Source of the DNA: an uncultured Actinomycetes bacterium
GTDB lineage: Bacteria; Actinomycetota; Thermoleophilia; UBA2241
Direction: 5' to 3'
Assembly (NCBI GenBank): GCA_963709345.1
Contig: CAVPVX010000011.1
Span: 160,001 to 224,000 of the forward strand
Length of the DNA: 64,000 nt
Below are positions 15,014 to 46,259 of this stretch, one piece after another; position 1 is the stretch's first letter, and the number at the start of each line of letters is the position of its first letter. The notes under the pieces are model-generated. The model did no database searches and was not told where the DNA came from. It saw only the letters and a list, made by a program, of their open reading frames with translations. Made by a program: the position numbers and the translations under genes.

Positions 15014-15103
15014 CGGCCGTCCCGGGCGTTGGAGCCGTGTGCGCCGCCCGAGGCCGTGACTGCTGGCCTGCGGCGCCGGGACGGCATAGACTGCGGCAAC
15101 CGA

Positions 15104-24016: not shown

Positions 24017-24148
24017 CCGGCTGGTCTTCCCGGGAGGGCGTCTGTGCCGCGGGCGGCCCTCCCGGGGGGATTCGAGTGTGACCGCGCCTGCCCGGCCGGG
24101 CGCCGCGCGAGCATCCGGATCGCACCACCATCGGCGAGGAGTCCTGCC

Positions 24149-25394
<1,246 letters not shown>

Positions 25395-25414
<20 letters not shown>

Positions 25415-28380: not shown

Positions 28381-28971
28381 TCAGGAACCCGGCGCGGGAT
28401 CGCCTTCCCCGTCCGTACCGTGCTTGTCCGTCGAGGCTCCGAGGCCGACATCCTCGCCCTCCCAGTTGTAGAAGAACTTCTCGGTGCGCAGCACGTTCCA
28501 GGTCTGCGTCCCGGCGATGCCGTCGATCTTCTCGAGGTCCTCGTTCAGGAACTTGAACAGGCCCTCTGTGTGGGGCAGGTACGCCTGGATGATGATGTCG
28601 AAGTTCCCGGCTACGTAGGCGACGTAGGCGACGTTCTCCATCTCCGCCAGCCTGCGCCCGACCTCCCTGACCTTGCCGCGCACGACATTGATGCCGACCA
28701 TGGCGTCGATGGGGAAGCCGATGGGAGCCGGGTTGATGCGCGCGGCGTTGATGATGGCGCCCGCGTCCACCAGACGGTCGATGCGCTTACGCACGGTAGG
28801 CTCGGAGAGGCCGACGACGCGCGCGATGTGGGCGTAGCTCAGTCGCGCGTCGTGCCGCAGCAGCTTCATGATGCGGCGGTCGCTGTCGTCCAGTTCGATG
28901 GTGCCGTGGGGCAGGGACCCCAGTCGGACGAACGGCTGATTGTCGTGATGTCTATCCGAATCGCCCTTCAT
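28381..28971 (-). CDS. Lrp/AsnC-family regulator
   Basis: LDDSDRRIMKLLRHDARLSYAHIARVVGLSEPTVRKRIDRL; divergent from the ABC operon. Confidence 0.92.
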   Translation of the reverse strand: MKGDSDRHHDNQPFVRLGSLPHGTIELDDSDRRIMKLLRHDARLSYAHIARVVGLSEPTVRKRIDRLVDAGAIINAARINPAPIGFPIDAMVGINVVRGKVREVGRRLAEMENVAYVAYVAGNFDIIIQAYLPHTEGLFKFLNEDLEKIDGIAGTQTWNVLRTEKFFYNWEGEDVGLGASTDKHGTDGEGDPAPGS

Positions 28972-29286
28972 GAATGCGAAGTATAGCGAATAGGCCCTGC
29001 GCGTTCAATGACCCGCTCGGAATACGCCACTTTCGCTACGATTCAACAGTCCCTCTATTTGCCAGCGCGGGGTTCTGGTGCTACTGTGTCTCGCGGGGAG
29101 TCTTGACAGGGCGGCGGCACGTTGTCCATGGATGGTGACGCATGGTGATTACCGACCCGAGTGGATGTTGGTGGGCGCGGACATGACCATTGATGGCGCT
29201 CGGCGGCGAGACCGACTTCCCGAGACGCCTTTGATCGAGTTGAGGTGCGACCTTCAGGAAACGGCCAAGACAGGGGGAACGGCATC

Positions 29287-30939
29287 GTGACTGACAAGGA
29301 TCAGCGGTCTTCATCGGGGTACGACTTCGGCGAGCTCGGGGAGCTCGTCAACGGCAAGCGCATCTCGCGGCGCAGCCTGCTCAAGGGCGCGGCTGCCATG
29401 GGGGCGGTAGCGGCGCTGGGGCCGATCGCCTCGGCGTGCGGCAGCGGCGACTCCGGCACGGACGCGTCGAGTTCGGCGGCCGCGGAGGGTTCGGCTACCA
29501 AGGGCGGCGACCTCAAGGTCGGCATCGTCGGCGGCTCCGCCAAGGACACGGCCGATCCGCACACCGGCTCGTACGAGCCCGACATCGCCATCCAGTACAT
29601 CATGTACGAGGGCCTCACCGCGTGGGACTTCGACATGAACCTCACCAATCTGCTGGCCGAGACCATCGAGCCCAACGCCGACGGTTCCGTCTGGCAGGTC
29701 ACGCTCCGGGACGGGGTGCTGTGGCACGACGGCAAGCCCGTCACCGCCGACGACGTCGTCTACTCCATGGACCGCATCGTCGACCCGAAGGACCCGAAGG
29801 TCGGCGCCGCCGCTCTTACGGGCGTCACGCCCGGCGGTACGAAGAAGGTCGACGACAAAACGGTCGAGATCACTCTTTCGACGGCGAACGTGCTGTTGGC
29901 CGAGAACCTCGCCGAGCGTAGCTGCAAGATCGTGCCGGTGGGCTTCGACCCGAAAGCTCCCATCGGCAGCGGCCCGTTCAAGATGGTCGACATGAAGCCC
30001 GGTGAGTCCTTCAAGTGGGATGCGTTCGCCGACTACTGGGACACGCCCCCGTACGTCGACACGCTCACCATGATCGAGTATGCCGACGACACGGCGCGCA
30101 TCAACGCGCTGAAGAGCGGCCAGATCCAGGCGATGTCGCAGTTGCCGAAGAGCCAGGCCAAGGTCATCGAGGCGACGGACGGGCTCGCGCTCCTCAACGC
30201 CGAGACCGGCGCATGGCGTCCCTTCACCATGCGCATCGACGTCAAGCCGTTCGACGACGTGCGCGTCCGGCAGGCGTTCCGGCTCATCGTCGACCGCCAG
30301 CAGATGATCGACCAGGCCTACAGCGGCCTCGGCGCCGTCGCCAACGACATGTACGGCCGGTTCGACGCCGGCACGCCCGAGCTCGAGCAGCGCGTGCAGG
30401 ACATCGAGCAGGCCAAGTCGCTGCTCAAGCAGGCCGGCTACGACAACAATCTCACCGTCGAGCTCGTCACCTCGGAGGGCGCGCTGGGCGGCGACGAGGT
30501 CGCGGCGGCGCAGGTGTTCGCCGAGCAGGCCAAGGCCGCCGGTGTCACCGTCAAGATCAAGAAGACCGACTCCAGCGTCTTCTACGGCGACGACTACCTG
30601 TCCTGGCCGTTCGCGCAGGACTTCTGGGCGACGCGCACCTTCCTGGCGCAGGCCAGCCAGGGCACGATGCCCGATGCCCCGTACAACGAGACGCACTGGA
30701 AGAACGCCGAGTGGCTGTCGCTCGTCAATGAGGCCTTCAAGACGGTCGACGACGATCAACGCAACGCGCTGGTCAGCCAGGCCCAGCAGATCGAGTTCGA
30801 CACGGGCGGCTACATCGTCTGGTCGTGGCGCAACCAGGTCGACGCGTACTCCGAGACGACCACCGGCTACAAGCTGGACAAGCTCGGCGGTCCTGTCGGC
30901 CGGATGTACTTCAAGGACGTCTACTTCGTGAAGGGCTGA
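29287..30939 (+). CDS. ABC transporter substrate-binding lipoprotein (family 5), Tat signal
   Basis: SRRSLLK twin-arginine, ASAC lipobox, WHDGKPVTADDV and GSGPF motifs. Confidence 0.92.
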   Translation: MTDKDQRSSSGYDFGELGELVNGKRISRRSLLKGAAAMGAVAALGPIASACGSGDSGTDASSSAAAEGSATKGGDLKVGIVGGSAKDTADPHTGSYEPDIAIQYIMYEGLTAWDFDMNLTNLLAETIEPNADGSVWQVTLRDGVLWHDGKPVTADDVVYSMDRIVDPKDPKVGAAALTGVTPGGTKKVDDKTVEITLSTANVLLAENLAERSCKIVPVGFDPKAPIGSGPFKMVDMKPGESFKWDAFADYWDTPPYVDTLTMIEYADDTARINALKSGQIQAMSQLPKSQAKVIEATDGLALLNAETGAWRPFTMRIDVKPFDDVRVRQAFRLIVDRQQMIDQAYSGLGAVANDMYGRFDAGTPELEQRVQDIEQAKSLLKQAGYDNNLTVELVTSEGALGGDEVAAAQVFAEQAKAAGVTVKIKKTDSSVFYGDDYLSWPFAQDFWATRTFLAQASQGTMPDAPYNETHWKNAEWLSLVNEAFKTVDDDQRNALVSQAQQIEFDTGGYIVWSWRNQVDAYSETTTGYKLDKLGGPVGRMYFKDVYFVKG

Positions 30940-31125
30940 TCGGAGAGACGGCAGCGGCCGCGGGCGCGGGGCACGGCCCCGCGCCCGCGGCCGCTCCGCG
31001 GCGATTGCCGCCGGCTCGCTCGATCGTCAGCCGGACAGCAGCACTCGTGAACCCGTCTTCTCCGTACTCCGCCCGCGAGAGGCAGCCATCATGATCGGTA
31101 GAACCGCAAGAGGGAGGCGCAGCCC

Positions 31126-32091
31126 ATGCCCCCGCTCCTGAAGCTGATCCTCATACGGATCGGCCTCGGCTTGCTCACGCTTCTGCTGGTGTCCATGGTC
31201 GTGTTCGTCGCGACGCAGGCTCTCCCGGGCGACACCGCCAAGGCGATCCTCGGCAGGGAGGCGGCCAACAAGGACCGCTACGAGGCGCTCAAGGAGCAAC
31301 TCGGGCTCAACAAGCCGGTCACGTCGCAGTACTTGGACTGGCTCGGCGGCGTGGTCACCGGCGACCTCGGCGACTCGCTCGCTCAGGGCTCGCCGGTCAC
31401 GGAGCTCATCGGCAGGCGCGTCATCAACACCTTCATCCTGGTGTTCGTCGCGGCTCTGGTGAGCGTGCCCGTCTCGCTCCTCTTGGGCTCCCTCACCGCG
31501 TTACGAAGAGACACCAAGTTCGACGGCACCGTCACTGTCGGCAGCCTGTCGCTGGCGGCGCTGCCGGAGTTCGTTATCGGCATCTTCCTCATCCTCCTGT
31601 TCGCGACCCAGGTGTTCCGTATCCTGCCGGCGACGTCTCTCGTGGATTCGAGCCTGCCGATCCTGCAGCAGCTCGACCTGTTCGTCCTGCCGGCGCTCAC
31701 GCTGACGCTCGCGGTGGCGCCGTACATCACGCGCATCCTGCGCGCCAGCACGATCGAGGTGCTCGAGAGCGAGTACGTGATGATGGCGCGCCTCAAGGGA
31801 CTGCCCGAGCGGCTGGTGCTCAACCGGCACGCGCTTCCCAATGCGCTGGCGCCGGCGCTTCAGGTCACGGCGCTCAACCTCGCGTGGCTGGCCGGCGGCG
31901 TCGTCGTGGTCGAGTACCTCTTCGCCTTCCCCGGCATCGGCTCGCTGCTCGTCGACTCTGTCGCCAACCGCGACATGCCCATGGTGCAGGCGATCACGTT
32001 GATCATCGCCGCGGTGTACGTGGTCGCCAACCTGACGGCCGACATCCTCACGATCCTCGTCAGCCCACGACTCAGGACGGGCCTGCGATGA
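31126..32091 (+). CDS. ABC permease (DppB-like)
   Basis: LPGD, GDLGDS and EYVMMARLKGL..HALPNAL motifs. Confidence 0.92.
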   Translation: MPPLLKLILIRIGLGLLTLLLVSMVVFVATQALPGDTAKAILGREAANKDRYEALKEQLGLNKPVTSQYLDWLGGVVTGDLGDSLAQGSPVTELIGRRVINTFILVFVAALVSVPVSLLLGSLTALRRDTKFDGTVTVGSLSLAALPEFVIGIFLILLFATQVFRILPATSLVDSSLPILQQLDLFVLPALTLTLAVAPYITRILRASTIEVLESEYVMMARLKGLPERLVLNRHALPNALAPALQVTALNLAWLAGGVVVVEYLFAFPGIGSLLVDSVANRDMPMVQAITLIIAAVYVVANLTADILTILVSPRLRTGLR

Positions 32092-33011
32092 GCACTCCAG
32101 AGATGAGAGTGACCGACTCGGAGCTCGTCGAGCCGCCGGTCGTGCACGCCGACAACCGGCCCTCCGAGTGGCTCATGATGCTGCGCGAGGCGTGGCGCAT
32201 GGGCCGCACCAAGATCGGCGTCGGCATCTTCGCGATCATCGTCCTCATCGCCGTCGTCGGCCCGTGGGTGGCGCCGTACTCGCCCACCGAGTTCGTCGCG
32301 CCGCCGTTCTCGCCGCCCGAAGTCTCCAAGATGTGGCTGGGCAGCGACTACATCGGCCACGATGTGCTCACGCGCGTGCTCTACGGCGGCCGTACCGTCA
32401 TCCTGCTCGCCCTCGCGGCCACGGTCATCGGCCTCGTCCTGGGCGTGACCCTGGGACTTGTCACCGGCTACGCGCGGCGCTGGATCGACGAGTCGATCAT
32501 GCGCATCCTGGACGTCGTCCTCGCGTTCCCGCAGATCGTGCTCGCGCTGCTCTTCGTTTCGATCCTTGGGCCGAGGCTCTGGCTCATCGTGCTCATCGTC
32601 GGCATTTCGCACGCGCCGCGCATCGCGCGCGTCGCGCGGGCTGCCACGCTCGAGGTCTCGCAGCGCGACTTCGTGCTCGCCGCCGAGGCCTTCGGCATCG
32701 CGCGCTGGAAGATCCTCTTCAACGAGATCCTGCCGAGCATCACCAGCCCGCTGCTGGTCGAGTTCGGCCTGCGCCTCACCTACTCGATCGGTGTCATCGC
32801 CGCGCTGTCGTTCCTCGGCTTCGGCATGCAGCCGCCGGCGGCCGACTGGGGCCTGATGATCAACGAGAACCGCATCGGCCTCATCATCCAGCCGTGGCCG
32901 GTCGCGGTCCCCGTGATACTCATCGGCATCCTGACGATCGGCACCAACCTGATCGCGGACGGCCTCGGCCGCTCCCTGATCGGCATCGAGCGCGACACGG
33001 GGGTAGGGTGA
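32088..33011 (+). CDS. ABC permease (DppC-like)
   Basis: LGSDYIGHDVLTRVLYGGR, DFVLAAEAFG and LSFLGFG..PP.ADWG motifs. Confidence 0.92.
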   Translation: MSTPEMRVTDSELVEPPVVHADNRPSEWLMMLREAWRMGRTKIGVGIFAIIVLIAVVGPWVAPYSPTEFVAPPFSPPEVSKMWLGSDYIGHDVLTRVLYGGRTVILLALAATVIGLVLGVTLGLVTGYARRWIDESIMRILDVVLAFPQIVLALLFVSILGPRLWLIVLIVGISHAPRIARVARAATLEVSQRDFVLAAEAFGIARWKILFNEILPSITSPLLVEFGLRLTYSIGVIAALSFLGFGMQPPAADWGLMINENRIGLIIQPWPVAVPVILIGILTIGTNLIADGLGRSLIGIERDTGVG

Positions 33012-34831
33012 TGGAGACCGCTACTGAGAACACCGCTGCTGCTCCGGAGCTCGAGGCCGTCCTCAAGGTCGAGGGACTGCGCATCGTCCTCGACCCCTCG
33101 GGCGTCGACATCGACGACGACATCTCGCTGGCGATCCACCGCGGCGAGGTTCTGGGGCTCGTCGGCGAGTCCGCGTCGGGCAAGACGACCGTCGGAACCA
33201 GCTTGCTCGATTACCAGCGCCGCGGCGCCAAGATCGCTGGGGGGCATGTCGAGATCGACGGCCGTGACATCCTTGCCATGGATCCCGGCACGTTGCGCAG
33301 CGTCCGCGGGGGGCAGATCAGCTATGTGCCCCAGGACTCCTCGGCGGCGCTGAACCCTGCGCTGCGCATCGGCACGCAGCTCATGGAGATCCTCGAGGTG
33401 CACGGCTTCGGCTCGTCGTCGGCGGACCGTGACGCCCGCCTTGCTCAGATGATGTCGGAGGTGCTGCTGCCGTCGGACAAGCAGTTCCTCCGCCGGTACC
33501 CGCATCAGCTCTCCGGCGGCCAGCAGCAGCGGGTCGCCATCGCCATGGCGTTCGCCAACCGGCCCAAGGTCATCGTCCTCGACGAGCCGACCACCGCCCT
33601 CGACGTGACCACCCAGGCGCACGTGCTCGACACCGTGCGCGACCTCACCAAGTCGTACGGGGTCGCGGCGCTGTACATCACCCACGACCTCGCCGTGGTC
33701 TCCAACCTCGCCGACCGCATCGCCGTCATGTACGCCGGCAGGGTGGTCGAGACGGGCACGCGCGACGAGCTGTTCGACCAGGGGCACCACCCGTACACGC
33801 GCAAGCTGCTCGCCTCGATCCCCGACATCACCGGGGAGCGCGCTCTGCGCGGCATACCCGGCTGGGCCCCCCGTCCGGGACAGCGACCCAGCGGCTGTTC
33901 CTTCACGCCGCGCTGCGACTGGGCGGTCGACAAGTGCGGGGAGCAGTTCCCGCCGGTTGAGCAGGTGAGCCCGGGGCACAACGTTCGCTGCTGGCGCTAC
34001 ACGGAGGTCGGCGCGCAGACGGCCGTGCTCGACGTCCAATTGCGCGACAAGTCGCTCTCCGCTCGTGAGACGCCGGACAAGCAGGTCATCAGCGTGCGCG
34101 ACGTGACGGCTTACTACCAGCACAAGGAGACGCTGCACGACATAAGTGCCAGTCTCAGCGAGCGCCGCTGCCTGTCGCTCGTCGGCGAGTCGGGGTCCGG
34201 CAAGACGACCTTGGCGCGCTGCATCGCCGGCCTGCACCGGCACAAGATCGTCGGCGACATCGACTTCATGGGCAAGCCCCTGGTGCGCGACGCGCGCCGC
34301 CGGCCGCGTGCGACCCGGCAGTCGATCCAGTACATCTTCCAGAGCCCCTACAGCTCGCTCAACCCGCGCAAGACGATCGCCCAGATCCTCTCGCAGCCGC
34401 TGAAGGTCTTCTTCGACCTCTCGCGCGACGAGATGGAGGATCGGATGGTGAAGGCGCTCGAGCAGGTGGCGCTCGACTCCTCTCTGCTGAGCCGCTACCC
34501 GGACCAGCTCTCCGGCGGCGAGCGCCAGCGTTTGGCCATCGCCCGCAGCCTGGCAGCCGAGCCCACGGTGCTGATCTGCGATGAGGTGACCTCGTGGCTG
34601 GACGTCTCCGTGCAGGCGGCGATCATCGAGCTGCTGGCGGCGCTGCAGCGCGACATGGGTCTCTCGATGCTGTTCGTGACCCACAACCTGGCGCTGGTGC
34701 GCAGCATCTCGCAGGAGGTCGCGGTGATGAACGAGGGCCGCATCGTCGAGTACGGGCTCGTCGACGCGGTGCTCGAAGACCCGCAGGCTGACTACACCAG
34801 GAAACTGCTGTCGGACACACCGACGGTGTAG
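33011..34831 (+). CDS. ABC ATP-binding protein, fused DppD/DppF
   Basis: Two Walker A motifs (GESASGKT, GESGSGKT) and two LSGG signatures; ends in TAG. Confidence 0.93.
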   Translation: METATENTAAAPELEAVLKVEGLRIVLDPSGVDIDDDISLAIHRGEVLGLVGESASGKTTVGTSLLDYQRRGAKIAGGHVEIDGRDILAMDPGTLRSVRGGQISYVPQDSSAALNPALRIGTQLMEILEVHGFGSSSADRDARLAQMMSEVLLPSDKQFLRRYPHQLSGGQQQRVAIAMAFANRPKVIVLDEPTTALDVTTQAHVLDTVRDLTKSYGVAALYITHDLAVVSNLADRIAVMYAGRVVETGTRDELFDQGHHPYTRKLLASIPDITGERALRGIPGWAPRPGQRPSGCSFTPRCDWAVDKCGEQFPPVEQVSPGHNVRCWRYTEVGAQTAVLDVQLRDKSLSARETPDKQVISVRDVTAYYQHKETLHDISASLSERRCLSLVGESGSGKTTLARCIAGLHRHKIVGDIDFMGKPLVRDARRRPRATRQSIQYIFQSPYSSLNPRKTIAQILSQPLKVFFDLSRDEMEDRMVKALEQVALDSSLLSRYPDQLSGGERQRLAIARSLAAEPTVLICDEVTSWLDVSVQAAIIELLAALQRDMGLSMLFVTHNLALVRSISQEVAVMNEGRIVEYGLVDAVLEDPQADYTRKLLSDTPTV

Positions 34832-34996
34832 GTGGGCTCGGCGGGCGGGCGGACGCAACTCCGCCCGCCGCCGGATCGCCTTCTCTCGTCGCACCCTGCC
34901 GCCGGTCGTGCCGGCTTCGCGGCTCCTCCGGCGCACGGAGTCCTACAGCGATCGGACCAACGGAATCGACCCAAGCATGAAGATCGGAGGAGGCCC

Positions 34997-36448
34997 GTGC
35001 GTGCGCACATGACCTGGCTGGACGAGACCGAGAAGCGGTCGTTCGTCGAAGAGGCGCTGGGCATCCTCGAGCGCGTGGGCGTCGAGCTCAAGGGGTCGGC
35101 GGCGCTGACCGTCCTCGCGGACCTCGGGGCGGACGTCGATCTCGCCACCGGGATCGTGCGTTTTCCGCCCGACCTGGTGCTGCGCGCCGTCGAGGCGTGC
35201 CCGCGCCGGGTGCTCTTCGCCGGGTCGTCGCCCGAGCACGACGTGGCGCTGGACGAGGGAGAGCCGGCGCACTTCTGCTCGTCGGGCTGCGCCGCGTTCG
35301 TGCTCGACCACGAGACGGGCAGCAGGCGTCCCTCGACGCTGACCGACCTGCAGGCGGCGACGATCCTGCTCGACGAAGTTCCCGAAGTCGACGTCCTGTG
35401 GACGACGATCACGGCCGGCGACGTGCCGGTCGAGATCCGCGAGCTGGTCGTCTGCTACGTGGTGCTCACCGAGACGCGCAAGCACGTCACGCTCGTCGAC
35501 AGCCCCTCGCAAGCCGAGCCGTTGCTGCGCATCATGGACGTGGTCTCGGGAGACGCCGAGGCGTTCCGGGAGCGGCCGCGGTTCAGCACGCTGCTCACCG
35601 CGGCGTCTCCGCTCCGCATCGACGGGCCGCTTCTCGACTTCCACGCGGCCACGGCGCGGCGCGGGGCGCCCGTCGAGGTCTACACAGTGCCCATGGCTGG
35701 AGCCACGTCGCCGGTGACGCCGGCCGGGACCGTCGTGCAGGGTCTGGCCGAGTTCCTGGCGATCGCGACCGCCCTGCAGGCGCTGGCTCCGGGGGCCCGG
35801 GTCGTCATGGGAGTCTCGGGCTCCATCATGGACATGCGTTCCGCGGGGGTCTCGTACGCAGCGCCGGAATGCACGCTGATGAACGTCGCCTGCGTGGAGC
35901 TCGCGCATCACCTGGGAGTGCCTGCGGCCGTTCCGGGCCTCGCGACCGACGCCAAGTACGCCGGCGTGCAGGCGGGGTATGAGAAGGCGCTCAAAGGCCT
36001 CGCGACGGCCGGCGTGGGCGCCGACGTGCTGAGCGGCGGCGTGGGCATGATCGACTCGGTCAACACGCTGTTCCTGCCCCAGATCGTCCTGGACGCGGAG
36101 GTGGCCGGAATGATCCGCCGCGTGCTCGGCGACGTCGCCACCGGGCGCGACGACATGATGGTGGAGATGATCGAGCGGGTGGGCATCGGCGGCGACTTTC
36201 TCAAGGAGAAGGAGACCGCCCGGCGGCTGCGCGCCGGCGAGCACTTCGCCCCCGCGATCTCGTCACGCCAGGCCTACGACCAGTGGGTCGGCGACGGGCG
36301 CGACGAGGTGGCTCGGGCGAGGGAGCGCATGGATGCGCTCTTCGCCGCCCGGGCCGAGCGCGGCCGGATGCTCCATGAGGAGACCCGGGCCGAGCTCGCC
36401 GCCGTCTGCGGGGTGACCGCGGAGATGGAGCTCGCGCTCGGCCACTGA
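34997..36448 (+). CDS. Non-pyrrolysine MttB-superfamily methyltransferase (paralog of 18550..19989)
   Basis: PMAGATSPVTPAGT and GLATDAKYAGVQAGYEK motifs; Ala at the Pyl-equivalent position. Confidence 0.9.
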   Translation: MRAHMTWLDETEKRSFVEEALGILERVGVELKGSAALTVLADLGADVDLATGIVRFPPDLVLRAVEACPRRVLFAGSSPEHDVALDEGEPAHFCSSGCAAFVLDHETGSRRPSTLTDLQAATILLDEVPEVDVLWTTITAGDVPVEIRELVVCYVVLTETRKHVTLVDSPSQAEPLLRIMDVVSGDAEAFRERPRFSTLLTAASPLRIDGPLLDFHAATARRGAPVEVYTVPMAGATSPVTPAGTVVQGLAEFLAIATALQALAPGARVVMGVSGSIMDMRSAGVSYAAPECTLMNVACVELAHHLGVPAAVPGLATDAKYAGVQAGYEKALKGLATAGVGADVLSGGVGMIDSVNTLFLPQIVLDAEVAGMIRRVLGDVATGRDDMMVEMIERVGIGGDFLKEKETARRLRAGEHFAPAISSRQAYDQWVGDGRDEVARARERMDALFAARAERGRMLHEETRAELAAVCGVTAEMELALGH

Positions 36449-36514: not shown

Positions 36515-36557
36515 TTGACACCTGGACGGGGAGCCCTTAGGTTTCCACCTGGGTGGA
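36515..36557 (+). promoter_or_regulatory. Promoter plus operator of the aminotransferase-gap-pgk-larA operon
   Basis: TTGACA-17 bp-TAGGTT, then TCCACC-TG-GGTGGA. Confidence 0.78.
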
Positions 36558-36579: not shown

Positions 36580-37953
36580 ATGGCAGAGCAGGATCCGGCC
36601 GTGGCCGGGGGGGTCAAGGAGGAGTTTCTCGAGCAGCACCTCTGGCCGCCGTTCACGCAGATGCAGAACCTCAAGCCCATCGTGATGGAGCGAGCCGAGG
36701 GCGCGCTCGTCTGGGACAGCGACGGCAACGAGTACATCGACGCGTTCGCCAGCCTCTGGACGGTCAACGTTGGTCACGGCCGCACCGAGATCCACGACGC
36801 CATCAAGGCGCAGATGGAGAAGCTCTCCATCTACCACATCTTCCAGATCGCCAACGAGCCCGCGGTCAAGCTCGCGAACAAGGTCGCCCAACTGGCGCCC
36901 GGCGACCTCGACCACGTGTTCCTCACGCTCGGCGGCGGGGAGTCGGTCGAGACCGCCGTCAAGATGGTGCGCCAGTACTGGCGCAACAAGGGCAAGGGCA
37001 CCAAGTACATGGTCATGTTCCGCGACCGCTCGTACCACGGCACGACCATGACCAGCACCAGCGCCCAGGGCCTCACCGTGAACCGCGCCAAGTTCGAGCC
37101 CATGCTCCCGGGCTTCATCAAGCTCGGCGCTCCCTACTGCTACCGCTGTGCCTGGAACAAGACCTACGGTGAAGACTGCAAGATGGAGTGCGCGAAGCAG
37201 GTCGAGACGGAGATCGACTTCTACGGCCCCGAGAACGTCGGCACCATGCTCGGCGAGACCATGATCGGCACCGGCGGCGTGATCCCGCCGCCGCCGGAGT
37301 ACTGGCCGATGGTCAACGACATCTGCAGGGCGAACGACGTCCTCGTGATCAACGACGAGGTCATCACCGGCTTCGGTCGCAGCGGCACCTGGTTCGGCTT
37401 CGAGCAGTTCGGCTCGAACCCCGACCTCGTCACGCTCGCCAAGGGCCTCTCGAGCGGCTACCTGCCGCTCGGCGCGGTGCTCGCGCGCGACCACGTCTAC
37501 GAGGCGTTCCTCGGCGGCCCCGCCGAGGCGTTCATGAGCGGCGCCACCTACATGGGGCACCCACTGTGCTGCGCCGCCGGCGTCGCCAACCTCGAGATCA
37601 TCGAGCGCGAGAAGCTGGTCGAGCGCTGCGCCGAGGTGGGAGCGTATATGCAGGAGGGGCTCGCCACACTGCTCAAGCACCCCATCGTCGGCGACGTGCG
37701 CGGCGTCGGCCTCGTCGCCGGCATCGAGTACGTGCAGGACAAGGAGACGCGCGAGTGGTTCGCGCCGGCGCAGGGCGTCGCCGCCAAGATCCGCGACGAG
37801 GCCTTCAAGCGCGGCGTCTTCGTGCGTCTGCTGGGGGGCGGCCACGTGACCGCGGTCGCGCCGCCGTTCATCATCAGCAAGGAGCAGATCGACACCGTCG
37901 TCGGCGCCCTCGACGAGTCCATCGGCGTCGTCGAGAAGCAACTCGGTTACTGA
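36580..37953 (+). CDS. Class III PLP omega-aminotransferase
   Basis: SLWTVNVGHGR, SYHGTT, DEVITGFGRSG and AKGLSSGYLP motifs. Confidence 0.93.
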   Translation: MAEQDPAVAGGVKEEFLEQHLWPPFTQMQNLKPIVMERAEGALVWDSDGNEYIDAFASLWTVNVGHGRTEIHDAIKAQMEKLSIYHIFQIANEPAVKLANKVAQLAPGDLDHVFLTLGGGESVETAVKMVRQYWRNKGKGTKYMVMFRDRSYHGTTMTSTSAQGLTVNRAKFEPMLPGFIKLGAPYCYRCAWNKTYGEDCKMECAKQVETEIDFYGPENVGTMLGETMIGTGGVIPPPPEYWPMVNDICRANDVLVINDEVITGFGRSGTWFGFEQFGSNPDLVTLAKGLSSGYLPLGAVLARDHVYEAFLGGPAEAFMSGATYMGHPLCCAAGVANLEIIEREKLVERCAEVGAYMQEGLATLLKHPIVGDVRGVGLVAGIEYVQDKETREWFAPAQGVAAKIRDEAFKRGVFVRLLGGGHVTAVAPPFIISKEQIDTVVGALDESIGVVEKQLGY

Positions 37954-37984
37954 CCGCTCACAGCGAACCGCAAGGAGCACGACA

Positions 37985-39004
37985 ATGGCAAAGCCCAGAG
38001 TAGGTGTGGTCGGCTACGGCGTCATCGGTCAGCGTCTGGCCGACGGCGTCGCCCTGCAGGAGGACATGGAGCTCGTCGGCGTCGTCGACGTGGCCCCGAC
38101 GCTCTCGACGAGGGCTCTCTGCGAGTCCGGCATGCCCTACGACCTGTACGTCGTCGAGGCGGGCCAGAAGGCCGCCTTCGACGCGGCCGGCATTCCCGTG
38201 AGCGGCACCATGGACGACCTGCTTGGCAAGGTCGACATCGTGCTCGACTCCTCGCCCGGCGGCGTCGGCCGCAAGAACAAGGAGCTCTACCAGGCGAAGG
38301 GCGTCAAGGCGATCTTCCAGGGCGGCGAGACGAACGACATCGTCGACGTCTTCTTCCACGGCTACGCCAATTACGAGAAGGGCGTCGGCAAGGACTACCT
38401 CAAGCTGACGAGCTGCAATACGACGGGCCTCATTCGCGCCGTCGACTGCCTCGACCGCGAGGTCGGCGTGGAGCGCGTGATCGTCACCATCGTGCGCCGC
38501 GTCGCCGACCCGGGCGACACGCACCGCGGCCTCGTCGACGTGGCCCAGGTGGAGCCGGTGCCGAACCATCAGGCGCTCGACCTCATGACGATCATGCCGC
38601 ACATCGAGGCCACCGGCCTGCTCGTGCACGTGCCGACCACGCACGGCCACATCATCAACGTCATCGCCACCACCAAGGGCGACATCAGCAAGGAGCGGGC
38701 GCTCGAGCTCTTCGAAGCCCACCCGCGCATCCGCAACGTCAAGATCGCCGACGGCTTCAACAGCAACTCGGCGCTCTTCCGCTACGCCCGTGAGCTCGGC
38801 AACAAGCGCGCCGACATGTACGACATCGCCGTGTTCGACGAGACCATCGCCAAGAGCGGCCGCGAGTTCATGTTCGCGATCAACATCCCGCAGGAGGCGG
38901 TCGTCATCCCCGAGACCGTCGACGGCATCCGCGCCGCGCTCTCCCTGCAGACCGACCGCCTTGAGGCCGTGGGCCTCACCAACACGTACCTCGGGCTCGC
39001 CTGA
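37985..39004 (+). CDS. Type II (archaeal-type) phosphorylating glyceraldehyde-3-phosphate dehydrogenase homolog
   Basis: GYGVIGQRLAD, IFQGGE, SCNTTGL, RRVADP and QEAVVIPETVD motifs. Confidence 0.9.
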   Translation: MAKPRVGVVGYGVIGQRLADGVALQEDMELVGVVDVAPTLSTRALCESGMPYDLYVVEAGQKAAFDAAGIPVSGTMDDLLGKVDIVLDSSPGGVGRKNKELYQAKGVKAIFQGGETNDIVDVFFHGYANYEKGVGKDYLKLTSCNTTGLIRAVDCLDREVGVERVIVTIVRRVADPGDTHRGLVDVAQVEPVPNHQALDLMTIMPHIEATGLLVHVPTTHGHIINVIATTKGDISKERALELFEAHPRIRNVKIADGFNSNSALFRYARELGNKRADMYDIAVFDETIAKSGREFMFAINIPQEAVVIPETVDGIRAALSLQTDRLEAVGLTNTYLGLA

Positions 39005-39052
39005 GCGGCACGGACTGACGGCACAAGCGGCTCGGGGAGGCGAGAGGCGCAG

Positions 39053-40303
39053 GTGAAGTACGGCATCCACACCCTGGATGACTTCGAGTGGGGCGGCAAG
39101 GTCGTGCTCTGCCGGGTCGACATCAACGCGCCGCTCGACCCCGAGACGGGGGGGCTGCGCGACGTCACCCGGCTGGAGGGTTGCGCGCCGACGGTCCGCG
39201 AGCTGGCGGAGGCCGGCGCCAGGGTCGTGCTCCTCGCCCACCAGGGCGGCGACCTCGAGTACCACAACTACGCGACGACCGAGAAGCACGCGCCGGTGGT
39301 GAGCGAGCTGACCAGGCGCCCCGTCGCCTTCATCGACGACGTCTGCGGGCCGGCCGCGCGCGAGGCCATCGGCCGGCTCGCGGACGGCGACGTCCTCCTG
39401 CTCGACAACGTGCGCTTCTGCGCCGAGGAGCTGACTCTCTTCGAGCGCAAACTCGACCTCTCGCCCGAGCAGCAGGCGAAGACGCTGGTGGTGCGCAAGC
39501 TGGCGCCGCTCGCCGACCTCTACGTGTGCGACGCATTTGCCGCCGCGCACCGCTCGCAGCCCACCCTGGTCGGCTTCGAGCAGCTCCTTCTGTCGGCCAT
39601 GGGCCGGCTTTTCGAGCGCGAGTACTCCAACCTTGCGCGTCTGCGCGCCGAGCCGGCGCGCCCGTGCGTGTTCGTGCTCGGCGGGACGAAGATCCAGGAG
39701 GCCTTCCCGATGATGGCAGCCGCTCTGCGCGACGGCATGGTCGACACCGTCCTCGCCGCCGGCGTCGTCGCGAACGTCATGCTCGCCGCCAAAGGCGTCG
39801 ACATAGGCGAGCCGTCCCTGGAGTTCATCAGGGCCGGCCAGCTGGAGAGGTTCATCGAGGAGTCGAAGGCGATCCTGGCCGATCACGGCGACAAGGTCGT
39901 GCTGCCCGCCGACGTCGCCTGCGTGAAGGCCGGCGGCCGCGTCGAGCTGGCGTCGGCCGATCTGCCCGTGGACGCGCAGCTCGTCGACATAGGCCACCGG
40001 GCCGTCGACGAGTACCGGCGGCGCATCGCCGCCGCCGGCACGGTGTTCGCCAACGGCCCGGCCGGCGTCTTCGAGCAGCCCGAGACCGAGTACGGCACGC
40101 GCTCGCTCTGGAAGGCGATGGCGACCACCGCCGGCTTCAGCGCCCTGGGCGGCGGCGACTCCGTCGCCGCCATGAACCGCTTCGGCCTCGCCGGCCGCTT
40201 CGACTACGTCTGCACGGCCGGCGGCGCCATGGTCCAGTTCCTCAGCGGCAAGCCGATGCCCGTGATCGAGGCGCTCAAGGCCTCGGCTGCGCGCTTCGCA
40301 TGA
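39053..40303 (+). CDS. pgk: Archaeal-type phosphoglycerate kinase homolog
   Basis: RVDINAP, NVRF, DAFAAAHRSQP, NGPAGVFE, GGGDS and TAGGA motifs. Confidence 0.88.
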   Translation: MKYGIHTLDDFEWGGKVVLCRVDINAPLDPETGGLRDVTRLEGCAPTVRELAEAGARVVLLAHQGGDLEYHNYATTEKHAPVVSELTRRPVAFIDDVCGPAAREAIGRLADGDVLLLDNVRFCAEELTLFERKLDLSPEQQAKTLVVRKLAPLADLYVCDAFAAAHRSQPTLVGFEQLLLSAMGRLFEREYSNLARLRAEPARPCVFVLGGTKIQEAFPMMAAALRDGMVDTVLAAGVVANVMLAAKGVDIGEPSLEFIRAGQLERFIEESKAILADHGDKVVLPADVACVKAGGRVELASADLPVDAQLVDIGHRAVDEYRRRIAAAGTVFANGPAGVFEQPETEYGTRSLWKAMATTAGFSALGGGDSVAAMNRFGLAGRFDYVCTAGGAMVQFLSGKPMPVIEALKASAARFA

Positions 40304-41574
40304 AGCTGACGATCCCCTACGGCGACGGGGAACTGCCGTTCGAGTTGCCCGATGCCTGCCTGATGGACGTCGTACGCCCCGGCTGCGGCCTCGGGGAGGA
40401 GGCGGACCCGCCGACGGCGCCCTCCGCCGCCGAGGAGCAGGCGGAGATACGGCGTGCCCTGGCGGAGCCCGTCGGCACGCCGCCGCTCGCCGAGCTGGCG
40501 GCCGGGGCGGGCAGCGCGGCCGTCGTCGTCAGCGACGTCACGCGGCCATGCCCCTCGTATCGCTTTCTGCCGGCCCTGCTCGCCGAGCTGGCGCCGATCG
40601 CGCCGGAGCGCGTCAGCATCCTCTTCGCGCTCGGCGGTCATCGCGCCCACACGCACGAGGAGCAGGTGCGACTGGTCGGCGAGGAGGTGGCCGCGAGCGG
40701 CGTCCGCCTCCTCGACCTCGACCCGGCGCGCTGCGTGCCGGTCGGCACGACCTCGCGGGGCACGCGCCTCGAGGTCTTCAAGCCGTATCTGGACGCCGAC
40801 CTGCGCGTGTGCACCGGCAACATCGAGTACCACTACTTCGCCGGGTTCAGCGGCGGGGCCAAGGCCGTGGTGCCGGGTCTGTGCTCCTACGCCGCCATCA
40901 GCGACAACCACAGCATGATGCTGGCGCCGGCGGCGAGGGCCGGGGTCATGGACGGCAACCCGGTGCGCGAGGACATCGACGAGGCCGGCGGCATGATCGG
41001 CATCGACTCCATCTTCAACGTGCTGCTCGACGAGGACAAGCGCATCATCGGCGCTGTGGCCGGGCACCATCTGGAGGCTCACAGGGTGGGGGCGGCAGCG
41101 TACGACCGGCGCTGCGACCTGCGCATCCCCGCGCCTGCCGACATCGTGATCGCTTCGCCCGGGGGCAGACCCAAGGACATGAATCTCTACCAGGCGCAGA
41201 AGACGCTCGACAACGTGGGCGGCGCGGTCCGTGACGGAGGCGTCGTGATCCTCGTGGCGCGCTGCCGTGAGGGATTCGGTCAATCGGTCTTCGAGGATTG
41301 GATGCGCGGCATGGGCTCGCCGCAGGCGCTCATCGACAGGATCCGGGAGGAGTTCGTCCTCGGCGGCCACAAGGCGGCGGCGATCGCCGGGCTGCTCGCC
41401 CGGGCGCGCGTCTATCTGGTCTCGGAGTTCCCGGACGATGTGGTCGAGAGCATGTGCATGCGGCCCTTCGCCACCGTCGACGGCGCCGTGCGGGCCGCCC
41501 TTGCCGAGGTCGGCGCCGACGCTCGCAGCCTCGTCGTGCCGCACGGCAGCCGGGTCACGGCCGGGACCGCGTAG
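40300..41574 (+). CDS. larA: LarA-family nickel-pincer 2-hydroxyacid racemase/epimerase
   Basis: SDVTRP, ALGGHR, HYFAGFSGGAK and DMNLYQAQK motifs. Confidence 0.88.
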   Translation: MKLTIPYGDGELPFELPDACLMDVVRPGCGLGEEADPPTAPSAAEEQAEIRRALAEPVGTPPLAELAAGAGSAAVVVSDVTRPCPSYRFLPALLAELAPIAPERVSILFALGGHRAHTHEEQVRLVGEEVAASGVRLLDLDPARCVPVGTTSRGTRLEVFKPYLDADLRVCTGNIEYHYFAGFSGGAKAVVPGLCSYAAISDNHSMMLAPAARAGVMDGNPVREDIDEAGGMIGIDSIFNVLLDEDKRIIGAVAGHHLEAHRVGAAAYDRRCDLRIPAPADIVIASPGGRPKDMNLYQAQKTLDNVGGAVRDGGVVILVARCREGFGQSVFEDWMRGMGSPQALIDRIREEFVLGGHKAAAIAGLLARARVYLVSEFPDDVVESMCMRPFATVDGAVRAALAEVGADARSLVVPHGSRVTAGTA

Positions 41575-41733
41575 TCGCGCCGGTGGAGCGGCCGGGCGCG
41601 GTGGCGCGCCCGTGCCGGCGCCCCGGGTCCGAGACGAGAAGAGAACGGCGGGCCGCCCTGCGGCGGCCCGCCGTTCTCCGCGTCTCCCCGGCGCTCGCGC
41701 GGGGAGGGCCTCGTCAGGACGACGGCGGGGACG

Positions 41734-42948
41734 TCACTTCGCCTTCGCCGCGGCCTTCTTCTCCTTGACCGGCTCGGTGCCGGGCTTGACGGCCATGTTG
41801 CGGTAGACCTGCTCCATGTCTTCGGCGGTGAACTTGCGCGGGTTGTTGTTCCAGAGCCGCGCCTGCGTGAGGGCGCCCTTGACCAGGTCCGGGATCGCCG
41901 ACTCGGGGATTCCGACCTCGTTCAGGTACTGCGGCACGCCGAGGTCGTCGGCCAGCGTGCGCAGCGCCTGCAGCGTGACCTCGCAACCCTCGCGGTCGCT
42001 CAGCCCTTCCATGTTCTCGCCCATGAGCTCGCCGATCTCGCGGAAGAACTGCGGGCAGGCCAGCATGTTGTACTCCATGACCCAGGGGAGCATGAGCGTG
42101 TTGGCGATGCCGTGCGGCACGTGGAACATGCCGCCGACCGGGTAGCTCATGGCGTGGACGGCGCCGACGCCGGCGTTGCCGAAGGCGATGCCGCCGAGCA
42201 GCGAGCCGATGGCCATGTTGTGGCGCGCCCAGGCGTTGGTCCCGTCGAAGACGGCGGTGCGGATGCTCTGGCTGATGAGCTTGATGCCCTCCGCGGCCAG
42301 CGGGTCGGTATGCATGGTGGCGTTGACCGAGATGTAGGCCTCGATGTTGTGGATGAGTGCGTCCATGCCGCTGGCGGCGGTGACGCCGGGCGGGCAGCTG
42401 TAGGTGAGCACGGGGTCGACCATGGCGATGTTGGGGATCAGGTGGGGGCTGACTACCCCCTGCTTCACATTGAGCTTCTCGTTGGCGAAGATGCCGATCG
42501 CGGTGACCTCGGTGCCCGTACCGGCCGTGGTCGGCACGGCGATGAACGGCAGCCCCTTCTTCGGCACCTGGTCGACGCCGACGTAGTCCTCGATGCGGTC
42601 GTCGGTGGGGGCGAGCACCGCGACCAGCTTGGCGACGTCGATGGCCGAGCCGCCGCCGAAGCCGACGATGAGGTCGTACTCGCCCTTCTTGGCGATGTCC
42701 ACGATCTTCTGGACGCTGCCCATGGGGGGCTCGGGGACGGCCTTGTCGCAGATGCCGACTTCCATACCCGCTTCACGCAGCGGGGCCTCGACGCTGTCCA
42801 CGGTGCCGCAGCAGGCCACGCCGGGGTCGGTGATGACGAGCACCTTGGTGGCGCGGAGCTTCTTCGCCTCGGCGCCGAGCTGCGCGACGCAACCGTTGCC
42901 GGTGATGAGCGTCTTGGGCGCCCGGTGGACGCGGATCTTGGTATCCAT
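41734..42948 (-). CDS. Iron-containing alcohol dehydrogenase (probable 4-hydroxybutyrate dehydrogenase)
   Basis: GGGSAID, PTTAGTGTE, DALIH and HAMSY..HVPHG motifs; in operon with cat2 and abfD. Confidence 0.85.
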   Translation of the reverse strand: MDTKIRVHRAPKTLITGNGCVAQLGAEAKKLRATKVLVITDPGVACCGTVDSVEAPLREAGMEVGICDKAVPEPPMGSVQKIVDIAKKGEYDLIVGFGGGSAIDVAKLVAVLAPTDDRIEDYVGVDQVPKKGLPFIAVPTTAGTGTEVTAIGIFANEKLNVKQGVVSPHLIPNIAMVDPVLTYSCPPGVTAASGMDALIHNIEAYISVNATMHTDPLAAEGIKLISQSIRTAVFDGTNAWARHNMAIGSLLGGIAFGNAGVGAVHAMSYPVGGMFHVPHGIANTLMLPWVMEYNMLACPQFFREIGELMGENMEGLSDREGCEVTLQALRTLADDLGVPQYLNEVGIPESAIPDLVKGALTQARLWNNNPRKFTAEDMEQVYRNMAVKPGTEPVKEKKAAAKAK

Positions 42949-42974
42949 GGCTCTTCTCTCCTCCGTTGTGACTG

Positions 42975-46099: not shown

Positions 46100-46259
46100 G
46101 CGGTGCACTCCTTCCTGGCGCCCTCGGGTGGTCGGGCGCTGCGCTGGCTTGCAGGCACGGGCGCGCGCATGGGCGGGAGCGCTCGCGCGTTGGTTCGCTC
46201 CGGCGGGGCGCGGACGGCTCGCGATCGACCGTGTGACGCTCGGCGCCCTCGTGGATTCA

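Follow-up and report, generated by a model that had tools for sequence, protein, structure and literature searches.

We describe here four co-directional, closely packed genes at positions 36580-41574 on the forward strand of a 64,000-nucleotide stretch of DNA (contig C11:160001-224000, hereafter the window; G+C about 69%) from an uncultured soil bacterium of the Thermoleophilia (Actinomycetota), whose genome assembly comprises 3.1 Mb in 11 contigs and is 98% complete. They encode a class-III omega-aminotransferase, a type II (archaeal-type) glyceraldehyde-3-phosphate dehydrogenase (GAPDH), a phosphoglycerate kinase (PGK), and a LarA-family racemase; the two middle products, both paralogs, are referred to as GAPDH2 and PGK2. 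On balance, we consider it likely that the four genes form one catabolic unit, which would oxidize a carboxylate look-alike of glyceraldehyde 3-phosphate (GAP) and save the energy as ATP.

The proposed route can be sub-divided into four steps. The omega-aminotransferase would act on an amine, most simply (R)-4-amino-3-hydroxybutyrate (GABOB), to give D-malate semialdehyde (3-hydroxy-4-oxobutanoate), which is GAP with a carboxylate instead of the phosphate ester. GAPDH2 would then use NAD+ and phosphate to convert this aldehyde, through a cysteine thioester, to D-malyl 1-phosphate, and PGK2 would transfer the acyl phosphate to ADP, yielding D-malate and ATP. Finally, LarA would racemize D-malate, so that L-malate becomes available to malic enzyme or the tricarboxylic acid (TCA) cycle. 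All substrates and products, the direction in which the route runs, and the amine that enters it are inferred.

That a GAPDH and a PGK may have been repurposed for malic semialdehyde, with a yield of ATP followed by racemization, is well supported by genomic context, by stereochemistry, and by residue changes that run through the whole clade. An initial annotation of this DNA had offered much the same interpretation. Comparative genomics supports an extra GAPDH and PGK and a malate-racemase-like LarA, and predicts malic semialdehyde; the link that the initial annotation drew to MttB-family methyltransferases is limited to one lineage.

Layout of the unit and the canonical glycolytic genes

Every element that the initial annotation described in the unit is present, including the SCNTTGL motif of GAPDH2 and the HQGG of PGK2 (Table 1). 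The ATG of the aminotransferase gene at 36580 is preceded by a strong ribosome binding site (RBS; GGAGAGGAAGGA), the two gaps that follow measure 31 nt (aminotransferase/GAPDH2) and 48 nt (GAPDH2/PGK2) with a Shine–Dalgarno-like motif before each, and the stop codon of PGK2 and the start codon of LarA (40300) share an ATGA overlap. Downstream of LarA lies a hairpin that is likely a bidirectional terminator closing the operon. A scan for consensus promoters and terminators reported nothing within 36-42 kb; the hairpin was missed because it has no T-tract.

A gap of 131 nt separates the upstream MttB gene from the aminotransferase gene. Within it, at 36515-36545, one can read by eye TTGACA and, 17 nt on, TAGGTT, a possible separate promoter for the four genes that is absent from the output of the consensus scan.

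Among the sequencing runs, none contained more than 0.22 of the window's sampled words. Contigs of a soil RNA library (X20) cover 29 of 30 window bins at a likeness of at least 88%, and 16 of the 165 contigs matched to the window are at least 99% alike; these contigs are short and mostly from relatives, and RNA libraries can contain DNA, so they prove neither that the genes are transcribed nor that they share an operon transcript.

The absence of other glycolytic genes near the unit, also remarked on in the initial annotation, holds for the window as a whole, which has no match to tpi or eno. The canonical genes lie side by side on another contig, C7, with tpi at C7:140889-141623, pgk at C7:141683-142810 (509 bits), and a gap match at C7:~142916-143383; the genome's sole tpi and enolase matches are on C7 as well. 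The two window genes are therefore not the only gap and pgk of the genome, a point on which the earlier interpretation had been made to depend, and because of this canonical gap-pgk-tpi operon GAPDH2 and PGK2 are not the housekeeping pair.

GAPDH2 and PGK2

GAPDH2 scores 387.8 bits against NF003251 (cut-off 185) and 296.7 against TIGR01546 (cut-off 232.9), and it shares 36-41% identity with the solved archaeal GAPDHs 1CF2, 2CZC, 2YYY, and 1B7G. In a FastTree phylogeny of 126 sequences, it falls in a monophyletic clade of 51 (support 0.963), in which identity to GAPDH2 is 66% or higher, all others being at about 40-41% or less. At 50% clustering, the full-length representatives of the clade are 69% and 66% identical to GAPDH2, and the next sequence at most 41%.

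The sites were compared using a list in 1CF2 numbering (PMC12041015), which comprises the catalytic Ser-Cys-Asn-Thr and His219, Arg167/Arg168 as the substrate-phosphate site, and His193/His194 as the inorganic phosphate (Pi) site, with 75 other type II representatives as the comparison set. The GAPDH2 residues S143, C144, N145, T146, R171, R172, H195, and H222 are invariant in 51/51 clade members. The Pi-site pair is incomplete, with H195 kept and His194 replaced by Q196 in all 51, a position that is His in 62 of the 75 others. Two further positions set the clade apart: that of Leu217 is His (H220) throughout the clade and in 10/75 others, and D35 is likewise universal in the clade where 27/75 others carry Lys.

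Since the Cys, the catalytic His, the anion-site Arg pair, and the greater part of the Pi site remain in GAPDH2, it is expected to work by a phosphorylating mechanism, and an acyl-phosphate product would fit the retained phosphate site. Asp35 suggests NAD rather than NADP as the cofactor, and a catabolic role. We propose that GAPDH2 may be a phosphorylating D-malate-semialdehyde dehydrogenase, probably NAD-dependent.

Of 24 further genomes in the genus, 18 encode the window GAPDH at 90% identity or above; among 16 genomes from other genera of the class, it turned up once (39%). In a collection of 5.8 billion proteins, its relatives at 70% identity or more are labeled Desulfitobacteriaceae, Firmicutes, Chloroflexota, Anaerolineae, and Humimicrobiaceae. 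One protein, P0005 (566 aa, 96% identical to the window GAPDH), possesses both Gp_dh_C and PGK domains and is either a true GAPDH2-PGK2 fusion or a gene-calling artefact in a metagenome-assembled genome.

PGK2 matches PF00162 over its full length (340.5 bits vs 27; profile positions 1-379 of 379) and reaches no NCBIfam equivalog cut-off (PRK13962, 267 vs 883). Its best solved relative is the PGK of P. horikoshii (2CUN), with HQGK for the HQGG of PGK2. The PGK2 motif reads LLAHQGGD, and the genome's canonical PGK has SHLGRP at the same place.

According to an excerpt of PMC7729029, the 3-phosphate of 3-phosphoglycerate is bound by Arg65, Arg122, and Arg170, with His62 in the basic patch. The Arg65 equivalent is Gly in the window PGK2, Arg in the canonical PGK of the genome, and Lys in archaeal 2CUN. 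Across 51 PGK2 sequences (that of the window and 50 linked to the module in other genomes), it is Asp in 26, Gly in 17, Ser in 8, and basic in none; the loss of the basic-patch Arg that the initial annotation read from HQGG is thus borne out for the whole clade. The patch is incomplete rather than absent, since H62, R122, and R170 remain and are kept, with D23, N25, and R38, in 51/51. D23 and N25 are the residues that bind the 2-hydroxyl, and Arg38 is one that we take to bind the carboxylate/acyl phosphate. We propose that PGK2 would act as a malyl-phosphate:ADP phosphotransferase, the ATP-forming step. A search for longer PGK2 relatives returned one PfkB-PGK protein (32% identity) and no PGK-LarA fusion, which is weak evidence.

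One might suppose instead that GAPDH2 and PGK2 are a second, horizontally acquired pair acting on GAP and 1,3-bisphosphoglycerate (1,3-BPG), as gluconeogenic or condition-specific isoenzymes with coincidental neighbors. Both proteins pass their family models, and the catalytic and most anion-binding residues are intact. We nevertheless find this quite improbable: the canonical operon exists, the basic residue at PGK Arg65 is gone in all 51 sequences, the clade stands sharply apart from other type II GAPDHs (at least 66% vs at most 40% identity), no tpi or eno matches accompany the genes (the screen covered the window, not the 80 loci compared below), and the operons that carry the pair are always catabolic ones, in which it is accompanied by LarA, transketolase, iol genes, or malic enzyme.

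The LarA-family racemase

The best NCBIfam family of the window LarA is NF052593, malate racemase LarAH6, and its best solved relative is Mar2 (6D6Z; E 1.2e-100), the lactate racemases following at 1.5e-63 or weaker. The subfamily to which it belongs was a concern of the initial annotation, and the placement is a partial one, being nearest to Mar2/LarAH6 with a score under the malate-racemase cut-off (458 vs 500). The syntenic ortholog of Clostridium tanneri scores 594.3 against the same cut-off.

In Mar2 of Thermoanaerobacterium thermosaccharolyticum, the excerpted text of PMC7583248 gives a catalytic His pair and Lys, and Arg/Lys/His residues that bind the nickel-pincer nucleotide (NPN); the sites are R74, H171, K181, H197, and K294. 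The window LarA retains R74, H171, Y172, K181, H197, Q293, K294, and K351, so that within the substrate-recognition set of Mar2 (Y172, K173, Q293, K351) K173 alone is changed. The two enzymes are thus alike in the catalytic His, the NPN-binding Lys/His, Q293, K294, and K351, and unlike in that the window protein has Phe for K173 and Ala for H180.

The motifs TRP, HR, HY, KA, NH, and QK recur across the module-linked LarAs, and K351, the proposed second-carboxylate binder of Mar2, is retained in 31/34 of them. With the positions of Mar2 K173 and H180 changed, the module-linked LarAs form a distinct subgroup in the malate-racemase branch, and we propose that the window LarA may be a D/L-malate racemase. 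LarC (PF01969, Ni_insertion) is encoded on contig C3 (339 bits).

No LarA group is larger than that of the malate racemases, and the consulted sections of PMC7583248 and PMC11770544 term the in vivo role of these enzymes an open question; those that have been characterized also epimerize tartrate, according to an excerpt of PMC11770544. A second LarA-family gene is found at C2:335868-336392 (Lar_N 147 bits), a few kb from MttB fragments at C2:330290-333210.

The module in other genomes

Conservation was surveyed by an alignment-based pattern scan with GAPDH2 relatives, using one genome per species, which gave at least 587 confirmed relatives. The best 80 of these loci were compared by clustering their open reading frames (ORFs), annotating the clusters, and matching the window proteins by tblastn; in high-GC loci, genes were called by third-position GC. 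Nineteen loci (L018-L035 and L040) are Thermoleophilia-like, with a GAPDH at least 83% identical to that of the window (2/19 are labeled as other phyla), and 61 are from other phyla. Loci "with room" are those with enough flanking DNA to show the neighbor gene.

PGK2 directly follows GAPDH2 in nearly all loci with room (55/58 in other phyla, 15/15 Thermoleophilia-like). LarA is in the locus in 29/53 of the other-phyla cases, and stands right after PGK2 in 17/53 of them and in 12/13 Thermoleophilia-like loci. The aminotransferase (>60% identity) is directly upstream of GAPDH2 in 16/17 Thermoleophilia-like loci and present in 0/51 from other phyla. The initial annotation expected the gene set to be kept together with MttB; this is so in the Thermoleophilia-like loci with at least 3.2 kb upstream, where MttB lies directly upstream of the aminotransferase in 9/13 and within 10 kb in 10/13, and not in other phyla (1/61, at 26% identity). 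The conserved core is GAPDH2-PGK2, often with LarA, and the aminotransferase and MttB are lineage-specific additions.

The neighbors found in other phyla point to a source of malate semialdehyde. A split transketolase occurs in 24/61 of these loci, malic enzyme in 12/61, and iolD/E/B in 11/61, the transketolase being present every time that the iol genes are. The gene row of Clostridium tanneri (L094) reads AraC regulator, sugar ABC transporter, malic enzyme, GAPDH2, PGK2, TktN, TktC, IolB, IolD, IolE, IolG, and LarA; the NCBIfam cut-offs are exceeded by IolD (977 vs 715), IolE (434 vs 290), IolG (489 vs 355), and LarAH6 (594 vs 500), and not by IolB (106 vs 205). The row contains no iolC, iolJ, or iolA. 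This arrangement supports the view that in Clostridia the module would replace iolC/J/A after iolB and transketolase.

The chemistry can be reasoned out as follows. The product of IolB, 2-deoxy-5-keto-D-gluconate, has the D-threo ketol arrangement that transketolase requires, and by our own reasoning removal of a two-carbon (C2) unit from it would leave D-3-hydroxy-4-oxobutanoate, that is, D-malate semialdehyde. A racemase would then be needed because the D-malate formed by oxidation is no substrate for a malic enzyme specific for the L-form. One Thermoleophilia-like locus, L023, has the order aminotransferase, GAPDH2, PGK2, LarA, malic enzyme; in the source genome, malic enzyme is on contig C4. 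By tblastn, the source genome has no IolE or IolB and only weak, paralog-level matches to IolD (24%) and IolG (22.5%), which indicates that the inositol feed is not used there.

Clostridium magnum DSM 2767 possesses two GAPDH2-PGK2 modules (L048, L050). One copy stands in a full iol-transketolase operon ending in LarA; the other has malic enzyme, LarA, and different neighbors, with a transketolase C-terminal subunit several genes upstream. Two such copies suggest that the module has been joined to more than one feeder pathway. In two uncultured Eubacteriales/Clostridia (L079 and L093), GAPDH2-PGK2 occurs without LarA, transketolase, or iol genes and is followed by a conserved run of five unannotated gene clusters, which may stand for a further pathway into or out of the module.

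A rival reading has the same chemistry act on another GAP-like 2-hydroxy aldehyde, such as tartrate semialdehyde, sulfolactaldehyde, or an amino-deoxy-tetronate-derived compound, with LarA acting on the matching 2-hydroxy acid. We hold this unlikely, and the evidence deserves to be set out on both sides. Two positions in the pocket region set every one of the 34 module-linked LarAs apart from Mar2 (HYK has become HYF, and GGHK has become GGAK), the window LarA is under the malate-racemase cut-off, iol genes and malic enzyme are both absent from many of the other-phyla loci, whose feeders thus vary, and genes for sulfur assimilation are found in the window 10 kb upstream. Characterized malate racemases, moreover, epimerize tartrate too (PMC11770544, in excerpt). 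Malate is favored by the malic enzyme that recurs as downstream partner (12/61 other-phyla loci and L023), by the Clostridium LarA ortholog over the cut-off (594 vs 500), by Mar2 K351, retained in 31/34, and by the iol and transketolase context, which predicts malate semialdehyde specifically. As for a sulfonate, an EamA gene and a divergent regulator separate the sulfur genes from the operon, and for this and the foregoing reasons a sulfonate was rejected as the principal substrate.

The amine side of the locus

The aminotransferase reaches no NCBIfam equivalog cut-off. Its best solved relatives are omega-transaminases of the pyruvate type, putrescine/polyamine:pyruvate transaminases, and 4-aminobutyrate (GABA) transaminases, and it is single-copy, the nearest paralog in the genome being 33-35% identical. 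GABOB is the sole amine that would give malate semialdehyde by transamination, and we propose that GABOB or a similar omega-amine would be the substrate from which D-malate semialdehyde is formed.

The setting of amine catabolism described in the initial annotation is confirmed: an MttB gene lies next to an ABC transporter upstream of the unit (Table 1), and two more MttB genes, MtbB, and a corrinoid protein are found at 17-23 kb. The MttB gene at 34832-36448 has an open frame without an in-frame stop and a GTG start directly after the stop codon of the ABC ATPase; a true trimethylamine methyltransferase carries an in-frame UAG and exceeds the TIGR02369 cut-off, and because this gene does neither it is regarded as a non-Pyl member of the superfamily. 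We infer its link to the four-gene unit from its position. The binding protein of the importer reaches no NCBIfam cut-off, and the synteny of the importer is maintained in the closest loci. The divergent AsnC/Lrp-type gene, found at the same place in L019, L021, L029, L031, and L040, is a candidate regulator of the locus.

Elsewhere on the contig, a match to the C-terminal part of PylS (C11:18405-19130) scores 318 against a cut-off of 178. In-frame TAG codons occur at window positions 17147-17149, 21029-21031, and 22608-22610 in one MttB gene (20051-21517) and two MtbB genes, where the Dimeth_Pyl profile continues past them; a corrinoid protein accompanies the MtbB and MttB genes of this region. 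About 10 of the 64 MttB matches in the genome have a single in-frame TAG. By these features, the source looks like a pyrrolysine-using member of the Thermoleophilia with a very large methylamine methyltransferase repertoire. In L032, MtbB and MttB genes stand just after LarA.

L-carnitine is one conceivable origin of the amine. In Acinetobacter baumannii, malic semialdehyde derived from L-carnitine has been found by experiment to give D-malate, the stereocentre being untouched (PMC11353897, in excerpt). A racemase would be needed in an amine route for this very reason, that malic semialdehyde from L-carnitine gives D-malate.

Downstream of the unit, the Fe-ADH, CoA-transferase, AbfD/HpaB-like, and glutamate dehydrogenase genes (Table 1) resemble a 4-aminobutyrate/4-hydroxybutyrate route, and we treat them as context rather than core. 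The AbfD-like gene has at least six frame changes in about 1 kb, with single-frame orthologs in L020, L021, L022, L028, and L031 and intact neighbors; either the gene is decaying into a pseudogene or the assembly is faulty at this place. The aminotransferase could belong to this branch, converting GABA to succinate semialdehyde, with GAPDH2 and PGK2 acting on succinate semialdehyde or otherwise fed. The downstream genes, which are found in the window and in eight close loci, and the GABA transaminases among the closest solved relatives speak for such an arrangement. We consider it highly improbable, given that the aminotransferase stands beside GAPDH2 (31-nt gap, same strand) in L023, L032, L034, and L035 without 4-hydroxybutyrate genes, that succinate is not a 2-hydroxy acid and would leave LarA without a role, that PGK2 keeps the 2-hydroxyl-binding D23 and N25, and that the AbfD-like gene is frameshifted in the window.

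The proposed steps might also be run in the biosynthetic direction, from L-malate through D-malate, malyl phosphate (with ATP used), and malate semialdehyde to GABOB, for a compatible solute or carnitine-like compound. The four reaction types are reversible in principle, and archaeal type II GAPDHs are commonly anabolic. To this we give very little credence: the genes that the module follows in other phyla are sugar importers and iol genes of catabolism, Asp35 suggests NAD and not NADP, the genes that flank the unit are for an importer and demethylases and not methylases, and malic enzyme comes after LarA in L023. The features of the locus are collected in Table 1.

Table 1. Features of the unit and its surroundings, in window coordinates
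Feature	Position	Strand	Evidence or remark
AsnC/Lrp-type regulator	28381..28971	-	Pfam HTH_AsnC-type and AsnC_trans_reg; divergent from the transporter
SBP_bac_5 binding protein	29245-30939	+	Pfam; twin-arginine (TAT) signal; part of a Dpp/Opp-type ABC importer (29245..34831)
ABC permease	31126-32091	+	Pfam
ABC permease	about 32168-33011	+	Pfam
Fused double ABC ATPase	33011-34831	+	Pfam
Non-Pyl MttB-superfamily methyltransferase	34832..36448	+	PF06253, 256 bits; TIGR02369, 335 vs cut-off 525
Class-III (omega) aminotransferase, 457 aa	36580..37953	+	PF00202, 323 bits
Type II (archaeal-type) GAPDH paralog, GAPDH2	37985..39004	+	NF003251 and TIGR01546 above cut-off; SCNTTGL
Archaeal-type PGK paralog, PGK2	39053..40303	+	PF00162, 340 bits
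LarA-family nickel-pincer racemase	40300..41574	+	Lar_N, 186 bits; LarA_C, 77 bits
Hairpin, perfect, GC-rich	41640-41678		Lies where the LarA and Fe-ADH genes converge; identified by eye
Iron-containing alcohol dehydrogenase (Fe-ADH)	41734-42972	-	Pfam/NCBIfam
CoA-transferase	42975-44285	-	Pfam/NCBIfam
AbfD/HpaB-like (4-hydroxybutyryl-CoA dehydratase-like)	about 44589-46100	-	Frameshifted
NADP-type glutamate dehydrogenase	46633-47994	+	Pfam/NCBIfam

Two further groups of genes lie upstream of those in Table 1. At 13971-15059 (+), a pyridoxal-phosphate (PLP)-dependent aldolase above the GntG-family cut-off (338 vs 230), with a match to low-specificity threonine aldolase too, stands with an adjoining BetI-type TetR regulator upstream of the methylamine genes. 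The interval from those genes to the operon contains, at 23288-27104 (+), a sulfotransferase, an ATP sulfurylase with a PUA-like domain, and a SulP/STAS sulfate permease.

Points against the proposed pathway

Several observations weigh against the pathway that we propose and should be kept in mind. GAPDH2 and PGK2 differ from the bona fide enzymes at few pocket positions, the substrate-site Arg pair of GAPDH and two of the three phosphate-binding Arg residues of PGK are still present, and activity on GAP and 1,3-BPG is possible. The score of the window LarA is 458.4 bits, under the LarAH6 (NF052593) cut-off of 500. Among the 34 module-linked LarAs, the position of Mar2 K173, a proposed substrate-recognition residue, is Phe in 33 and Met in one, and that of H180 is His in none, being mostly Ala, as in the window, with some Arg, Ser, or Ile. 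LarA is absent from 24/53 other-phyla loci with room, and the aminotransferase is confined to the Thermoleophilia-like loci, where it could instead serve the neighboring 4-hydroxybutyrate genes.

On the amine side, the binding protein is of the peptide/nickel type and not of the betaine/carnitine type, an MttB neighbor is not rare in a genome with 64 MttB matches, and in L034 and L035 the place of MttB is taken by a DAO-type oxidase together with a PGDH-like gene. Known MttB-family enzymes take one methyl off a quaternary amine to give a tertiary amine; because a transaminase needs a primary amine, two further demethylations are unaccounted for. A gene set so rich in methylamine functions fits a methylamine specialist, in which carnitine may be demethylated stepwise. 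Of all the steps proposed, the weakest is the origin of the amine from L-carnitine by way of the neighboring MttB and other corrinoid methyltransferases, which can be put forward only tentatively.

Taken at its broadest, the proposal would describe a widespread "carboxy-glycolysis" module of anaerobic and soil bacteria, in which a dedicated GAPDH/PGK pair would take D-malate semialdehyde through a natural D-malyl 1-phosphate with a yield of one ATP and nickel-pincer malate racemases would serve largely to clear the D-malate, together with a fully anaerobic breakdown of L-carnitine, free of trimethylamine (TMA), in the pyrrolysine-encoding organism studied here. MttB/MtbB-type corrinoid methyltransferases would strip all three methyls, and the omega-transaminase would convert (R)-GABOB to the aldehyde. 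We regard the whole of this as rather unlikely.

Comparison with known systems

The aerobic L-carnitine pathway of A. baumannii, as given in the excerpted text of PMC11353897, employs CntAB, a malic semialdehyde dehydrogenase, and a decarboxylating D-malate dehydrogenase. Like the route proposed for the window, it passes through malic semialdehyde and then D-malate, which is unable to enter central metabolism directly. The aldehyde comes there from an O2-dependent Rieske monooxygenase, and would come here from a transaminase; its oxidation there is non-phosphorylating, by a member of the aldehyde dehydrogenase (ALDH) superfamily and without ATP, whereas a GAPDH/PGK pair would bring a gain of ATP; and D-malate is removed there by a DmlA-type dehydrogenase, a role that would here fall to a nickel racemase. 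The carnitine enzymes of A. baumannii and those of the window unit share no homologous proteins.

With the archaeal type II GAPDH and PGK (1CF2, 2CZC, 2YYY, 1B7G, and 2CUN), the window pair shares its folds, the catalytic Cys/His, the Arg pair, the nucleotide/hinge residues, and a scheme in two steps, from the aldehyde to an acyl phosphate and from this to ATP. It differs in forming a separate bacterial clade, in a PGK2 without Arg65/Lys, in Gln196, His220, and Asp35 of GAPDH2, and in its catabolic neighbors.

Classical myo-inositol catabolism relies on IolG, IolE, IolD, IolB, IolC, IolJ, and IolA, and the Clostridia module is in an operon with IolG/E/D/B. A split transketolase, GAPDH2, PGK2, LarA, and malic enzyme replace the kinase, the aldolase, and the malonate-semialdehyde dehydrogenase of the classical route. 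The source genome differs from this Clostridia version in having an aminotransferase ahead of the module.

A synthetic route to 2,4-dihydroxybutyrate, known to us from excerpts of PMC5481828 and PMC12104201, also makes malyl phosphate and malate semialdehyde with a kinase and a phosphorylating dehydrogenase. That route is engineered and reductive, uses aspartate kinase and aspartate-semialdehyde dehydrogenase, is called non-natural by its authors, and involves the other carboxyl group (4-phospho-malate and 2-hydroxy-4-oxobutanoate).

In the full-text literature that was searched (most subscription journals being outside its scope), there was no description of a natural malate semialdehyde oxidation of the GAPDH/PGK type, of a transketolase-dependent inositol route, or of a genomic LarA-PGK link. 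The main text of two papers on the LarA superfamily (PMC7583248 and PMC11770544), in the sections consulted, mentions no GAPDH, PGK, or transketolase context.

Implications

If the proposal is correct, two textbook enzymes of glycolysis would have a non-glycolytic role in an ATP-conserving oxidation of an aldehyde, and their annotation as GAPDH and PGK would inflate or distort the glycolytic capacity inferred for hundreds of species. Malyl 1-phosphate would be a new natural acyl phosphate, and its use a new substrate-level phosphorylation for anaerobic energy metabolism. Malate racemases would gain a physiological role, and Clostridia a transketolase-dependent route for myo-inositol. In the organism studied here, one would have an oxygen-independent route from carnitine-type amines to malate without the release of TMA, which would bear on the biology of TMA and of trimethylamine N-oxide (TMAO) in the gut.

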